Numbered from the stretch's first letter, positions 28,238 through 63,573 are shown. The stretch is 64,000 nt of DNA from an uncultured Clostridia bacterium (GCA_944386325.1 CALXAP010000002.1:63030-127029), one strand, 5' to 3'. Numbers and translations: made by a program. The notes: generated by a model not told the origin, from the letters alone.

Positions 28238-28417
28238 GTTTACAATTCACGGCATCAGATTTTGATATAATAATATTTCATAAATTTTTCGGCTCAATAC
28301 GATATTTAAGAATTTGTAATATATAAAAATCCAATGTAGGGGCGAACATTGTTCGCCCGCGCTACGAAGCTATTTCTAAAAAAATTGAACATATAAATTT
28401 TAGCCGTGAATTGTAAC
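28238..28417 (-). repeat. composite MITE-like intergenic element (reverse orientation) between acpP and plsX
   Basis: Terminal inverted repeats GTTTACAATTCACGGC ... GCCGTGAATTGTAAC. The interior holds the reverse complement of the E-module tail, the GC palindrome TGTAGGGGCGAACATTGTTCGCCCGCGCTACGAAG (28335-28369), and a reverse B module. Confidence 0.7.
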
Positions 28418-28420
28418 ACT

Positions 28421-29452
28421 TTACTTGTTAACTGTAATCTTTTCAAATTCTTTCATCATAATATTTACAGAATCGCTTTTTGCAAATTGTTCTGCTTGTT
28501 TTATTGTAAAATAAAATAAAAACTCATCACTACTTCCATGTGCTTTTACAACTGGTCTTTTCACTCCTAGAAATAATGCTCCACCATATTCTCTATAATC
28601 TAATTTTTTCTTAAACTTATTAATTGCAGGTAAAGTAGGTATAGTACAAATTTTTGACCATAAATTATGTGTTAAACTATCAACTAATGTATTTTTAACT
28701 AATTTCCCCATACCTTCTACAGTTTTTAGAAAAACATTACCAGTAAATCCATCTGTGATAAGTGCATCAATTTCACCAGAAAATGCATCTCGACCTTCTA
28801 CATTTCCAACAAAATTAATTCCCAATTCTTTCGATTTTTCTTTTAGTAATTTATAACTTTCTTTCATTAAGTCATTTCCTTTTGTTTCTTCAGTTCCTAT
28901 ATTTAATAATCCTATTGCAGGACTTTCGATTTTATACGTATTTTTTAAATAAAAATTAGCCATTTGTGCAAATTGCAATAAATTAATAGGTTTACAATTT
29001 GTATTTGCACCTGCATCCATAAGCATTAATCCTTTTTTATATGCAGGAAGCATTGGCGCAATAGCTGGTCTATCTATTCCTTTTATTCTTCCTACCAATA
29101 AAGTGGCACCTGTTAACAAAGCACCAGAATTTCCAGCAGAAATAAATACATCTCCTTTTCCTTCTTTTAATAATCTAAAACCTACTACCATAGATGAATC
29201 TTTTTTAGTTTTTATTGCATGTGTTGGAATATCTTCCATATTTATTACTTCTGTTGTATTATGTATTTTTATTTTATTTGTAATTTCCGATATACTATTT
29301 TTATCATACAACTCTTTAATTCTTTTATTAATAACATCTTCATTTCCTACAAGTGTAATGGTTCCTTCTATTTCATTTGAGGCTTTTATTGCACCTTTTA
29401 TTACTGCATCTGGGGCATTATCTCCACCCATTGCATCTACTAATATATTCAC
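28421..29452 (-). CDS. plsX: phosphate acyltransferase PlsX
   Basis: N-terminus MNILVDAMGGDNAP and overall PlsX pattern. Confidence 0.9.
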   Translation of the reverse strand: MNILVDAMGGDNAPDAVIKGAIKASNEIEGTITLVGNEDVINKRIKELYDKNSISEITNKIKIHNTTEVINMEDIPTHAIKTKKDSSMVVGFRLLKEGKGDVFISAGNSGALLTGATLLVGRIKGIDRPAIAPMLPAYKKGLMLMDAGANTNCKPINLLQFAQMANFYLKNTYKIESPAIGLLNIGTEETKGNDLMKESYKLLKEKSKELGINFVGNVEGRDAFSGEIDALITDGFTGNVFLKTVEGMGKLVKNTLVDSLTHNLWSKICTIPTLPAINKFKKKLDYREYGGALFLGVKRPVVKAHGSSDEFLFYFTIKQAEQFAKSDSVNIMMKEFEKITVNK

Positions 29453-29562
29453 AGTATAAATTCCTCACTTTCAATTTATTTTAAACCACTTTTATTTTAT
29501 TTTTTTTTCTCAAAAAAATCAATAGCTTTTGACCAAATAGTCTAATTTTATTAAAAAAATAA

Positions 29563-29718
29563 TTACTATTCACAGCTTATAAAATTATATATTCAATTTT
29601 TGAGAAATAATTTTATAGTGCGGGCGAACACTGTTCGCCCCTACAACTATATTTTTTTGTATTATGTTATATAGATTTTGATATAATTATATCAAAATCG
29701 AATGACGTAAATTATAAC
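29563..29718 (+). repeat. composite MITE-like element (modules A-B-C-D-A') with terminal inverted repeats, between plsX and tuf
   Basis: TTACTATTCACAGC ... GACGTAAATTATAAC termini. Contains ATATATTCAATTTTTGAGAAAT (B), the GC palindrome TAGTGCGGGCGAACACTGTTCGCCCCTACA (29616-29646), and TATAGATTTTGATATAAT (D). Confidence 0.75.
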
Positions 29719-29775
29719 AAAAGATAAAAAAAATAAGAAAAATCTTTGATTTTTCTTATTTTTTCTTTTATCTTT

Positions 29776-30978
29776 TTATTCAATTATATCAGCAACTATA
29801 CCAGAACCAACTGTTCTTCCACCTTCACGAATAGCAAATCTTAATCCTTTTTCTATAGCTATTGGTGTAATTAATTCTATTTCCATAGAAACATTATCTC
29901 CTGGCATAACCATTTCTGTTCCAGCAGGTAATTCTATAACACCTGTAACATCTGTTGTTCTGAAATAGAATTGTGGTCTATATCCATTGAAGAATGGTGT
30001 ATGTCTTCCACCTTCTTCTTTTGTTAATACATAAACTTCTGCTTTGAATTTTGTATGTGGATGTATTGTTCCTGGTTTTGCTAAAACTTGACCTCTTTCA
30101 ATTTCATTTCTTTGAATTCCTCTTAAAAGAACTCCTATATTATCTCCAGCTTCTGCTTGATCTAATAATTTTCTGAACATTTCAACACCTGTAACAACTG
30201 TCTTTTTCTTTTCTTGTGAAAGTCCAACAATTTCAACTTCTTCAGAAACTTTTATTGTTCCTCTTTCTACTCTACCTGTTGCAACTGTTCCTCTACCAGT
30301 AATTGTGAATACATCTTCTACTGGCATTAAGAATGGTTGATCAACTGGTCTTTCTGGTGTTGGTATATATGAATCAACTGCATCCATTAATTCTTTTATG
30401 CATTGATATTCTGGTGCATTAGGATCTGTTGATGTAGACTCTAATACTTTTAATGAAGATCCTTTTATTACTGGGATTTCATCTCCTGGGAAATCATAGC
30501 TTGATAATAAGTCTCTAACTTCCATTTCAACTAAATCTAATAATTCTGGATCATCAACCATGTCGCATTTGTTTAAATATACAACTATATATTTAACACC
30601 AACTTGTCTTGCAAGTAATATATGCTCTCTTGTTTGAGGCATTGGACCATCAGCTGCAGAAACAACTAATATTGCTCCATCCATTTGTGCAGCACCTGTA
30701 ATCATATTTTTTACATAGTCAGCATGACCTGGACAGTCAACATGTGCATAATGTCTTTTTTCTGTTTCATACTCAACATGTGCTGTATTTATTGTGATTC
30801 CTCTTGCTTTCTCCTCTGGTGCTCCATCAATTTGATCATATGCTGTATATTGTGCTTTTCCTAACAATCCTAAGTATTTTGTGATTGCTGCTGTTGTTGT
30901 TGTTTTTCCATGGTCTACGTGACCAATTGTACCAATGTTAACATGTGGTTTTGTTCTTTCAAATTTTGCTTTTGCCAT
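29776..30978 (-). CDS. tuf: elongation factor Tu
   Basis: [21 protein letters not shown] motifs. 400 aa. Last gene of the rpsL-rpsG-fusA-tuf str operon. Confidence 0.97.
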
Positions 30979-31164
30979 TTAAAAATCCTCCTTTAATTTT
31001 TTAGATGTTTTACATCTATCTATATTTTCAAAATTGAAAACTTATTTTCCATTTATGGGTATTTTACAATAAATTTTCTAATTATGCAAGCTTTTTAATT
31101 TATTTTATTAATTGTATTACTATTCACAGCTATAATTTATATATTCAATTTTTTGAGAAAATTA

Positions 31165-61818: not shown

Positions 61819-61992
61819 ACTTTTTCCCCCATATGAAAATATATGACAAATGTAGCTTCGCTAGACCTTTTCTCTGTTTTTTTACATTTACTATATTAAT
61901 TTAATGGATAGTAAGAAACGTACAATATTTTTTGTGCATCGATAATGCAAAAAAATGATACTTATACTATTTATAAATATCATTTTTAAGAA

Positions 61993-62715
61993 TTATTTAT
62001 TTTCACTTGTTTTTAATTTATCTTCACTTTTTAAAAAAGCTGCTTTTATATTTTTCATTTTACCAAAAACTACAATTACATCATTATTTTCTAATTTAAT
62101 ATCACCATATACTAAATCTATTATTTCTTCTCCTCTTTTTAGTACTAATAACTGTATATCATATTTTTCTTTAAGTCCTATTTCCTCAATTGTTTTATTT
62201 TTAAAACTTTCCCTTAAATTTTTTATTTCAACTTCCACTATTGATTTTGTCCCATATGTGTCATATACAAAAAGACTATTCCCTCTTCTCATTATTTTGC
62301 TATTAGTTATTTTTATAATAAATTTATCTAATACACTTTTAAACCATTTAGATCTTCTAACAAAAAAGATTAATATAATATTTATAACAGTTAATAATAT
62401 TCCTAATTTTATTTCATGCATATTTGTAGTAGATGTTGAAATTAATAAATTAACAATAATAGAAACTATAGTTACATTAAAAATATAACTAAACATCATC
62501 ATAGCAGTTGTTAATTTTCTTCTTCTTTTAGTTAATAACATTGTTTCACTTTCACTTGTGGTAAATCCTGTACAAGTTAGAATAGATATTACTTGAAATC
62601 TACTTTTTTCTAAATTAATTCCTGTTATTCTAAACAATATTGTAAAAACTTCAATTATAATTTGATATAATAAAATTAAAATATTAAAAAGTATTAAAGC
62701 TAAAACTAAATTCAT
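61993..62715 (-). CDS. membrane protein with C-terminal TrkA-C (RCK_C)-like domain, between feoA and feoB
   Basis: Four predicted TM helices, then IEEIGLKEKYDIQLLVLKRGEEIIDLVYGDIKLENNDVIVVFGK resembling TrkA-C. Confidence 0.5.
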   Translation of the reverse strand: MNLVLALILFNILILLYQIIIEVFTILFRITGINLEKSRFQVISILTCTGFTTSESETMLLTKRRRKLTTAMMMFSYIFNVTIVSIIVNLLISTSTTNMHEIKLGILLTVINIILIFFVRRSKWFKSVLDKFIIKITNSKIMRRGNSLFVYDTYGTKSIVEVEIKNLRESFKNKTIEEIGLKEKYDIQLLVLKRGEEIIDLVYGDIKLENNDVIVVFGKMKNIKAAFLKSEDKLKTSENK

Positions 62716-62762
62716 TATATTTCCCCTTTTTATTTTCCATTATATCAAATCTTTTTTATTTT

Positions 62763-63002
62763 TCAACATAATTCTATATATATATATCTTGCATCTTCAT
62801 CTCTTATTGCAAGTAAAATATTTCTTATTTCATAAGCCCTGATTCCTCCACAAGCACTATTAAATACTGGTTTTATTATTGTTCCCTTCACAACACCTAA
62901 ATCTGATATTCTCCTTTTTATTTCTTCTTCTAATTTAATACTTTTTACTATACCTACATTATTTATTTTCAATTTATCTAAATTTACTATCAATTTATAC
63001 AC
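62763..63002 (-). CDS. feoA: FeoA family protein
   Basis: 79 aa, SH3-like FeoA pattern (VKSIKLEEEIKRRISDLGVVKGTIIKPV). Confidence 0.7.
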   Translation of the reverse strand: MYKLIVNLDKLKINNVGIVKSIKLEEEIKRRISDLGVVKGTIIKPVFNSACGGIRAYEIRNILLAIRDEDARYIYIELC

Positions 63003-63034
63003 TTCCTAATTTTTTATAGTTATATTTAAAAGTT

Positions 63035-63120
63035 GATGCGAAAAATTGCAAAGCAATTTTTCTTTGCATCTAGTATTTTTACTTTATGGGAAATGTAATT
63101 TCATATAAAGTAAAAATACT
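63035..63120. repeat. family I AT-rich palindrome repeat, copy 2
   Basis: GATGCGAAAAATTGCAAAGCAATTTTTCTTTGCATC...TTTATGGGAAATGTAATTTCATATAAAGTAAAAATAC, homologous to 42820-42905. Confidence 0.6.
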
Positions 63121-63191
63121 TATTTATATATTTTATGTCAATCATTTGCAATATGTTTTTATTAATGATATAAATTGTACTTAGGTATTTA

Positions 63192-63573
63192 TTACTATTC
63201 ACAGCCATAAAATATATAAAGATTTTGGTATAATAATATTGATTATTCACATCTAATTTAAAATTTATATTTTCAATTTATCGAGAAATAGCTTTGTAGT
63301 GCGGGCGAACAATGTTCGCCCCTACATTTAATTTTTATATATTATGGTTTATAGATTTTGATATAATAATATATAATAAATTTTGAATGCGATTGGAGAT
63401 GTTTTTAGAATTTGTTATATAATTTAATGAGGAATGTTCATGGGCAAAATCTTTGATTTTGAGCCTGAATGAAAGAGGCTCATTAAATTATTTTACAAAT
63501 TCTTAAATATCGTATTGAGCCGAAAAATTTATTATATATTATTATATCAAAATCTATAGCCGCGAATTGTAAT
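63192..63573 (+). repeat. largest composite MITE-like element (A-D-B-C-D-E-A'), holding the third E-module copy
   Basis: TTACTATTCACAGCC ... AGCCGCGAATTGTAAT termini. GC palindrome TGTAGTGCGGGCGAACAATGTTCGCCCCTACA at 63296-63326. Micro-ORF at 63440..63472. Confidence 0.75.

Follow-up and report, generated by a model that had tools for sequence, protein, structure and literature searches.

Intergenic repeats of an uncultured gut Clostridia bacterium as probable MITEs that share their ends with IS66-family insertion sequences

The bacterial MITEs that derive from insertion sequences (IS) with a DDE transposase, such as RUP (of IS630-Spn1), Correia/NEMIS, ERIC, Nezha and Bcr1, are short, non-coding, multi-copy and intergenic, carry terminal inverted repeats in common with an autonomous IS together with a target-site duplication, fold into long hairpins, and show insertion polymorphism between strains. 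In this work, the same traits were found in a family of repeats from an uncultured gut bacterium of the Clostridia (25.6% GC), within a stretch of 64,000 nucleotides that was analysed as a whole (GCA_944386325.1 CALXAP010000002.1:63030-127029, hereafter the window). Very likely, these repeats are non-autonomous transposable elements of one family, which share their ends with IS66-family IS and are mobilised in trans. Because those ends are common with IS66-family IS of related genomes, the repeats form, in our view, a new family within a kind of element that is well known. A DNA search of a plasmid collection with the elements gave no match, and no description of IS66-derived MITEs or of this sequence was found in the literature searched.

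The full units are bounded by terminal inverted repeats of 15-16 nt, GTTACAATTCACRGC(C), and carry a subterminal motif, GATTTTGATATAATAATAT, about 30-50 nt inside each end. In the window, the 15-nt repeat GTTACAATTCACRGC has 12 matches at up to two mismatches, where 0.09 are expected, and 16 at up to three, against about two in shuffles; six full terminal-repeat pairs result. Unit length ranges from 75 to 383 bp in the window and from 42 to 400 bp elsewhere, and the sole ORF with a Shine-Dalgarno sequence has 10 codons. The initial annotation had described seven modular units starting at position 28,238, and all seven were recovered with ends at most 3 nt away from those it gave; the start of the family, however, lies at about 12.6 kb and not at 28.2 kb. 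Its modular description also held: the terminal repeat and the subterminal module are common to the E type (250 bp) and the C type (155 bp). Two E-type units lie on the plus strand, at 35072..35322 (251 bp, a recent insertion) and at 45204..45453 (250 bp, downstream of the recG start, terminal repeats with 2 + 3 mismatches), and are 94.4% identical. The best-preserved C-type units, also on the plus strand, are found at 29562..29718 (157 bp, between tuf and plsX, 2 + 3 mismatches) and 37697..37852 (156 bp, 2 + 1 mismatches). Both cores are present in the fused 383-bp unit at 63191..63573 (+), in which the left end of E is followed by a C-type core with its hairpin and then by the rest of E, and which stands 42 bp upstream of the dUTPase start. 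The reversed copy at 28239..28417 (-) is likewise a C+E fusion, with 1 + 0 mismatches in its terminal repeats; in the window strain, 145 bp of its interior have been deleted at a 7-bp microhomology, TAATATA, and the undeleted form occurs in strains L003, L005 and L010. The copy said to lack the palindrome core, at 57585..57700 (+), does keep a good left terminal repeat with unrelated sequence in place of the hairpin, and its right terminal repeat is missing too.

Beyond these seven units, the window holds at least ten decayed C-type copies, a mini element of 75 bp at 55410..55484, to which no strand was assigned, and a terminal-repeat fragment at 14029..14131 (+). The latter joins a degenerate left terminal repeat (match at 14032-14046) and a subterminal module to a D5 repeat, and was recognised from repeat families D13 and D9 and by alignment. 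Among the decayed C-type copies, that at 19305..19446 (+; nhmmer, 115.6 bits) is full-length, with a perfect hairpin and both terminal repeats eroded, and that at 31116..31270 (+) has only the left terminal repeat and a variant hairpin, AGCGAAC...GTTCGCT, with one compensated base pair. Others on the plus strand lie at 22156..22288, 34577..34670, 35323..35444 (the E-type unit at 35072 inserted into its eroded left terminal repeat) and 54143..54266 (hairpin variant GCTTTCCC). Fragments with a hairpin remain at 14237..14307 (hairpin intact), 38256..38318 (adjoining a D5 repeat) and 56681..56761, all on the plus strand, and a minus-strand fragment at 12598..12654 (nhmmer, E 1.4e-6) also adjoins a D5 repeat and has a degenerate terminal repeat with 4 mismatches at 12642-12656. 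The 19 pieces sum to about 2.7 kb and occupy 4.2% of the window. Several copies are without recognisable duplications or without one or both terminal repeats, a point against the interpretation that would fit decay.

Target-site duplications, which the initial annotation had proposed to look for, are present and measure 8 bp. They are perfect around the E-type unit at 35072-35322 (AACTCTAT, at 35064-35071 and 35323-35330) and the mini element (CAATAGTT), and the flanks of the C-type unit at 29562-29718, AAAAAATA and AAAAGATA, agree at 7/8 positions. Among 60 terminal-repeat pairs surveyed in the window and in other genomes, which span 42-400 bp except for three pairs of 1.5-1.9 kb (two of them the insertion sequences described below), the 8-bp duplication is perfect in 21 and agrees at 7/8 positions in about 10 others. 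Comparison of insertion sites across strains, a second check proposed at that time, gave clean filled and empty sites at orthologous loci and not clade-wide conservation, where whole units are exactly present in some strains and missing from others whose flanks are 99-100% identical. The E-type unit at 35072-35322 is absent in L001, L003, L004, L005 and L008, where the empty site is a single AACTCTAT. Strain L004 carries an extra E copy, 99.2% identical to that unit, at window positions 22147-22154 on the left edge of the decayed copy 22156..22288, with the duplication AACTGATT; L001 and L004 share an extra E-type element inside the left end of 34577-34670, where L003 and L008 have a deletion derivative; and L009 lacks the C-type unit at 29562-29718, with an indel of 169 bp that exceeds the element and an 8-bp duplication by 4 nt. 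The strain-specific insertions, 3/3, fall within about 25 nt of the left end of a resident copy. There has been recent movement of units between near-identical strains, and this is not expected if the repeats were fixed regulatory sequences, such as promoters, terminators or leaders, of which copies stand in front of many genes. Such a role would agree with their strictly intergenic position and with an extended -10-like TGATATAAT and promoter-like TTGAAT-17-TAGAAT and TTGAGC-16-TATTAT, blocks which E-type units of different species conserve; nevertheless, promoter-like matches stay at shuffle level (10 vs 9.3 and 6 vs 5.3), terminator-like sites inside the elements are none, and the E type across species shows no orientation bias to neighbouring genes. 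As the sole explanation, regulation is contradicted by the strain differences and their 8-bp duplications, and we give it almost no chance of being right.

The third line of evidence for transposable elements, likewise among the checks that the initial annotation had proposed, is an IS with matching ends. Four IS variants of 1934-1971 bp, both ends of which are the same 16 nt, GTTACAATTCACAGCC, were found in related gut assemblies (L036 3644-5579, L055 1031-2964, L130-L137 and L138-L147). Perfect 8-mer duplications, AAATTTGA, TTTAAATT, TCCATTTT and TATAATGT, flank the IS at L055, L130/L133, L135 and L138, and the flanks in L036 agree over 9 bp; 8-bp target duplications are the general rule in the IS66 family (PMC3916326). 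Each variant has one sense ORF of 515-530 aa, its single transposase, which matches Pfam PF03050 (DDE_Tnp_IS66) with E 1e-17 to 1e-18 and NCBIfam NF033517 (IS66 family transposase) with 184.9 bits (cutoff, 180). No further sense ORF of 60 aa or more is present in the IS, hence no tnpA or tnpB, the canonical IS66 accessory ORFs. By this single-ORF layout, the IS presumably belongs with the ISBst12-like group. The subterminal motif of the MITE ends recurs in the IS, at the end upstream of the transposase. Gut assemblies hold the transposase in abundance: 1945 clusters match at E<=1e-20, most of them located on contigs about 2 kb long. One IS copy (L139) and a contig of the present species (L003) come from one sample, ERZ24773232, and they may belong to different organisms, because the IS contig has a coverage of 4.7 and the species contig one of 13.4. 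A tblastn search of the window and of L001-L010 found no transposase of this family, and the window's own species is absent among the matches listed in a genome scan.

The initial annotation's proposal of non-autonomous transposable elements is supported, then, by the 8-bp duplications, the end-matched IS and the filled and empty sites. Its second part, mobilisation by a transposase encoded elsewhere, stands as far as four matching IS exist in related assemblies and not for this genome; since the IS was not found in the window and its strain relatives, we only infer that an IS66 transposase mobilises these copies and that a resident IS copy exists in this species. In the mechanism that we propose, the DDE transposase of an IS66-family IS, supplied in trans, would bind the MITE ends and insert the unit into AT-rich intergenic DNA, with an 8-bp target duplication as the result. 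The subfamilies differ in their internal cargo only, namely a long rod-like hairpin in the E type (250 bp) and a GTAG-tagged REP-like GC hairpin in the C type (155 bp), and the fused, truncated and mini forms probably arose by nested insertion, recombination and microhomology deletion.

Both cargoes suggest other readings. The E-type unit at 35072-35322 folds as a rod-like hairpin with z of -10 to -12.6, and E-type units might be genes for a small structured RNA or a micro-peptide, a role compatible with mobility. Selection on a product would account for the conserved internal blocks: in 11 copies from different genomes, 41/51 hairpin pairs keep pairing through two-sided changes, the non-complementary blocks GAATGYGATTGGAG and CGTATTGAGCCG are kept in most copies, and 21 G-U cells against 7 A-C cells hint at one strand. 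However, compensated rod-like hairpins are usual in MITEs and can be maintained at the DNA level, Rfam gave no match even at E<=1, conservation of the 10-codon ORF (MGKIFDFEPE) does not extend to other genomes, and the lack of orientation bias noted above speaks against such a product as well. We consider this role unlikely.

The GC palindrome of the C module, a REP-like hairpin tagged with GTAG, is distributed far more widely than the elements themselves. A GTAG head stands beside the GC-rich palindrome (GTAGGGGCGAACANTGTTCGCCC) and is followed by a perfect 8-bp stem and a 3-4-nt loop, the core reading GTAG + GGGCGAAC-ANTG-TTCGCCC on one strand, and a GTAG-tagged palindrome is the architecture of REPs (PMC3733652). 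An identical 23-mer occurs, without the terminal repeat and without conserved flanks, in at least 120 metagenome contigs (34-64% GC), most of the named ones from human gut, and it is one among many variants, as 280 GTAGGGG-hairpin variants were found in these contigs against 24 for control heads. In the window, the hairpin core is 86% identical between copies, compared with 64% and 51% for the flanks, and 13/15 copies have the same orientation (two-sided binomial p 0.007). All this would suit C-type copies that are REP/REPIN sequences spread by a REP-associated tyrosine transposase (RAYT), with the IS66-type terminal repeats incidental. REPs, however, are short units of 20-40 bp with unrelated flanks, whereas every window copy has 60-150 bp of homology around the hairpin, including remnants of terminal repeats; no solitary hairpin is found in the window; and the sole polymorphic C copy is missing as a whole terminal-repeat-bounded unit. 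Moreover, no Y1 or RAYT gene is present among the called genes (window 929-40978 and 46795-64000), and neither turned up in a crude motif scan across all loci retrieved. We judge spread by a RAYT distinctly improbable, somewhat more so than an RNA or peptide product of the E type.

Within the MITE interpretation, the C-type units may be chimeric elements in which a REP-type hairpin is carried as cargo by a DDE-type (IS66) MITE, a possibility that we put forward tentatively and hold to be rather doubtful. It is suggested by the recurrence of the arrangement, a hairpin that outlasts the ends, the common orientation, and insertions on resident copies. Other low-GC gut genomes have MITEs with different hairpin sequences inside, such as L017 7010-7104, which has a perfect duplication, and L080, with the terminal repeat at its start (4281-4295) and two inverted hairpins inside. 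If the chimera is real, either transposases of two unrelated classes, tyrosine HUH and DDE, both act on one element or the host selects the hairpin. Neither the embedding of a REP-like hairpin nor a homing of new insertions to resident copies is established here, but both offer leads on how unrelated repeat systems combine. More generally, these results document a recently active mobile family in bacteria known only from metagenomes and connect this family with an unnamed and very abundant clade of IS66-family transposases. Contigs of this species terminate at these repeats, which are a cause of broken assemblies, and the insertion polymorphisms could serve as markers for strain tracking.

Compared with known systems, the partner IS resembles the single-ORF (ISBst12-like) members of IS66 in its DDE_Tnp_IS66 domain, 16-nt terminal repeats, 8-bp duplications and one long ORF, but its protein is only about 23-29% identical to annotated plasmid IS66 relatives, such as ISGst1, ISGka4 and ISDge4. 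Its ends start with GTTAC, unlike those of classical IS66, which start with GTAA. The C module is like the GTAG-tagged, RAYT-associated REP/REPIN, and its 23-mer is REP-like in many other gut contigs, whereas the hairpin of the window is never free-standing and forms the cargo of a terminal-repeat-bounded unit of about 155 bp, with no RAYT gene found. The units had been called BOX/RUP-like, and the likeness holds for architecture only. As in pneumococcal BOX, they are built from a few interchangeable sub-units; BOX elements are not known to have terminal inverted repeats, target duplications or a transposase, whereas the present elements have terminal inverted repeats and target duplications, and probably a partner transposase. 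RUP and Correia elements duplicate TA, and RUP, a MITE of IS630-Spn1, has IS630-type ends. The family described here differs from RUP and the other named bacterial MITEs in its 8-bp duplication and its IS66-family partner, whose ends it matches.

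The intergenic repeats of the window constitute a new and recently active family of MITEs, whose most likely mobiliser is a distinct clade of IS66-family insertion sequences with a single ORF, and one of its subfamilies, the C type of about 155 bp, carries a REP-like hairpin as cargo. The window has a GC content of 25.6%, its genes are housekeeping genes (rpsL-rpsG-fusA-tuf-plsX-acpP-rnc, recG, proS, dut, addB), most of them on the minus strand, and its segments 19.8-41 kb and 46.8-64 kb are 100% identical to contigs of ENA gut-metagenome assemblies (BRZ_* and ONAT22-1 series). 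The terminal-repeat motif GTTACAATTCACRGC occurs 12 times with up to two mismatches, against 0.09 expected, and 16 times with up to three, against about 2 in shuffled sequences. All seven units listed in the initial annotation were recovered, with ends no more than 3 nt from the positions assigned there. Self-comparison and a profile search of the window added a 75-bp mini element (55410-55484), ten more C-type pieces, complete or fragmentary, within 12.6-56.8 kb and a terminal-repeat fragment at 14029-14131, giving a total of 19 pieces that together make up about 2.7 kb (4.2%) of the window. Thirteen of the 15 C-type copies share one orientation (two-sided binomial p 0.007), a bias inseparable in the window from gene or replication direction. 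Metagenome contigs of the window's species (L272, L274-L276) terminate at the repeats (window 56715, 57574 and 63321); therefore, these elements fragment assemblies.

The initial annotation had interpreted the repeats as non-autonomous elements mobilised in trans, and both the observation and this interpretation are supported by strain polymorphism, by 8-bp duplications and by insertion sequences with identical ends. Ten strain loci (L001-L010), retrieved as contigs encoding an identical EF-Tu and 93-100% identical to window 19.8-41 kb, differ from the window chiefly by the presence or absence of whole units. As shown by the comparison, the E-type unit at 35072-35322, which belongs to the hairpin-forming subfamily of about 250 bp, is flanked in the window by AACTCTAT on both sides, immediately outside GTTAC...GTAAC, and is missing in L001, L003, L004, L005 and L008, where a single AACTCTAT occupies the site. 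In strain L004, an additional E-type unit lies between two copies of AACTGATT at window 22147-22154; it is 99.2% identical to the 35072 copy, compared with only 92-97% among the older E copies. L001 and L004 share a further E-type unit at 34580-34587. The C-type unit at 29562-29718 is missing in L009 as a 169-bp indel; in the window it is flanked by AAAAAATA and AAAAGATA, which agree at seven of eight positions. L003, L005 and L010 still have an intact fused C+E unit, of which the reversed unit at 28239-28417 is a version shortened by a 145-bp deletion at the microhomology TAATATA. Further strain comparison over window 0.9-22 kb and 46.8-64 kb found identical strains only and no new polymorphism.

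The duplications are 8 bp long and perfect both at 35072-35322 and around the mini element at 55410-55484 (CAATAGTT). Among 60 terminal-repeat pairs from the window and from loci of other genomes, spanning 42-400 bp save three of 1.5-1.9 kb (two of them insertion sequences), 21 have a perfect 8-bp duplication and about ten more match at seven of eight positions. All three strain-specific E insertions (35064-35071, 22147-22154 and 34580-34587) lie at the left ends of decayed C-type copies already resident there, from 5 nt outside to 25 nt inside them, which suggests that new E-type insertions target resident copies; such ends take up roughly 4% of the intergenic DNA. As a separate observation, the hairpin of the tuf-plsX copy (29622-29640) differs from that of L004, L005 and L008 by a clustered 3-nt change, GGGGAAAGCAGTG versus GGGGCGAACAGTG, in strains that are otherwise identical; the same variant recurs in the window copies 34597-34663 and 54175-54241, and gene conversion between copies is therefore possible.

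A third repeat family of about 150 bp, D5, is present at 12415-12558, 14097-14240 and 38400-38543; it contains a long inverted repeat of its own, and its core GAAGTCAAAGGCATTTAGGAAGACCCCAGCTATCATTTTGAC is conserved. All D5 copies directly adjoin C-type sequence, be it a copy or a fragment, and in two of them one side bears a degenerate terminal repeat of the IS66 type. The stretch 38337-38531 is missing in strain L001, and no Rfam match to D5 was obtained. Two other loci of the window were also noted. Window 35504-37583 holds four small tandem ORFs (123, 147, 113 and 103 aa) with a repeated spacer sequence between them (36449-36558 and 37014-37123). Strains diverge most in this block (92.5% in L001), and the strain-locus counterparts of the ORFs have no recorded Pfam hit, the first two also no NCBIfam hit. 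At 56795-57483 and 58869-60482, paired HEPN and nucleotidyltransferase genes adjoin those for an SNase-family nuclease and a large serine recombinase of 537 aa, a region that may be a small integrated element.

The hairpin carried by the C type has the sequence GTAGGGGCGAAC, and on one strand its core reads GTAG followed by GGGCGAAC-ANTG-TTCGCCC. Within the window it has no free-standing copies, and its pairwise identity is 86%, against 64% and 51% for its surroundings. A scan of metagenome contigs gave at least 120 loci (L148-L267) with an exact match to the 23-mer GGGCGAACANTGTTCGCCCCTAC, on unrelated contigs of 34-64% GC, the named ones mostly from human gut. Among the matches listed, none had an IS66-type terminal repeat within 130 bp of the 23-mer, the flanks were mutually unrelated, and GTAGGGG-headed sister motifs with different compensated stems numbered 280, against 24 for control heads. 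GTAG-tagged REPs have the same architecture as the core hairpin (PMC3733652), and the 23-mer is scattered in these contigs as a REP-like element; no published description of it was found in the literature searched. In other MAGs, GTAGGGG-hairpin modules of differing sequence occur within MITE copies whose terminal repeat is that of the window's family, as in L017 (7010-7104), where a copy with one symmetric hairpin has a perfect duplication AATTATAT, and in L080 (from 4281), where a perfect left terminal repeat is followed downstream by two inverted hairpins in a REPIN-like arrangement. No RAYT gene was found by a motif regex over all loci, which returned only a pyruvate kinase, or among the called genes of the window region. 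In the metagenome locus L152, the gene that two inverted hairpins enclose was rejected as a RAYT candidate, being a membrane protein. The sequence CGAACANTGTTCG was rejected as a LexA (Cheo) box, whose spacing is N4, because its own spacing is N3.

The entire E-type unit folds as a rod-like hairpin (z -10 on one strand, -12.6 on the other). Its relatives in other MAGs are 63-75% identical, and in an alignment of 11 sequences 41 of 51 pairs stay paired despite changes on both sides. A 10-codon ORF in the E core was discarded as a micro-ORF, being unconserved across genomes, and a promoter or terminator role was rejected, given that sequences resembling promoters or terminators are as frequent as expected from shuffles. 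Rfam at gathering threshold returned only a tRNA over the whole window, sensitive scans covering 34480-35510 and 12230-14400 yielded no meaningful hit, and the E type has no match to any Rfam family. Across species, the E type shows no orientation bias with respect to the genes beside it, and a DNA search of plasmids with it gave zero matches. The non-complementary blocks GAATGYGATTGGAG and CGTATTGAGCCG are kept in most copies, and the functional tests account for neither.

The initial annotation had placed the mobilising transposase elsewhere, and an insertion sequence with an identical 16-nt end, GTTACAATTCACAGCC, and an IS66-family transposase does exist. A terminal-repeat scan with one genome per species gave at least 119 loci, the listed matches being mostly gut MAGs, of animal and human origin, from low-GC uncultured 'Clostridia', 'Clostridium sp.', 'Bacilli' or Lachnospiraceae. 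In two of the loci, L036 (3644-5579) and L055 (1031-2964), repeat pairs 1.93 kb apart surround one 530-aa ORF, which matches Pfam DDE_Tnp_IS66 and the NCBIfam model of the IS66 family transposase (184.9 bits, cutoff 180). A protein search with the transposase returned 1945 clusters at E<=1e-20, mostly on contigs about 2 kb long, the length to be expected if assembly collapses the copies of a repeated insertion sequence. Two more variants, P0003 (L130-L137, 1936 bp) and P0099 (L138-L147, 1971 bp), show zero mismatches to the 15-nt motif at the ends lying inside contigs; the transposase is 515-530 aa long. Three of the insertion-sequence variants have perfect 8-mer duplications (AAATTTGA, TTTAAATT, TCCATTTT and TATAATGT), and the flanks of the L036 copy agree over 9 bp; duplications in the IS66 family are generally of 8 bp (PMC3916326). 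In the insertion sequence, GATTGTAATATAATTGTAAC lies as far from the transposase-upstream end as the subterminal module GATTTTGATATAATAATAT does from the MITE end, and the two align; the MITEs therefore look like derivatives of the transposase-upstream end. A short palindrome CTGTAACTTAATTGTTACA at 55520-55600, resembling the subterminal repeats of the insertion sequence (ATTGTAAC), lies upstream of an ORF (55660-55992) that was rejected as a transposase remnant for having no similarity to the transposase.

No transposase of the partner family was found in the window or in L001-L010, and the window's own species is absent among the matches listed in the one-genome-per-species scan. One copy of the insertion sequence (L139) and a contig of the window's species (L003) come from the same sample, ERZ24773232, with coverages of 4.7 and 13.4, respectively. 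Because the polymorphism is recent and the ends are identical, we infer that the MITEs are mobilised in trans by a resident copy.

This kind of element is already well known. No earlier description of IS66-derived MITEs, of Fusobacterium MITEs or of the hairpin sequence was found in the literature searched. The partner insertion sequence lacks the tnpA and tnpB ORFs, and we take it to belong to the single-ORF ISBst12-like group. Within the IS66 family, its nearest annotated relatives on plasmids, including ISGst1, ISGka4 and ISDge4, have transposases only about 23-29% identical to that of the partner.
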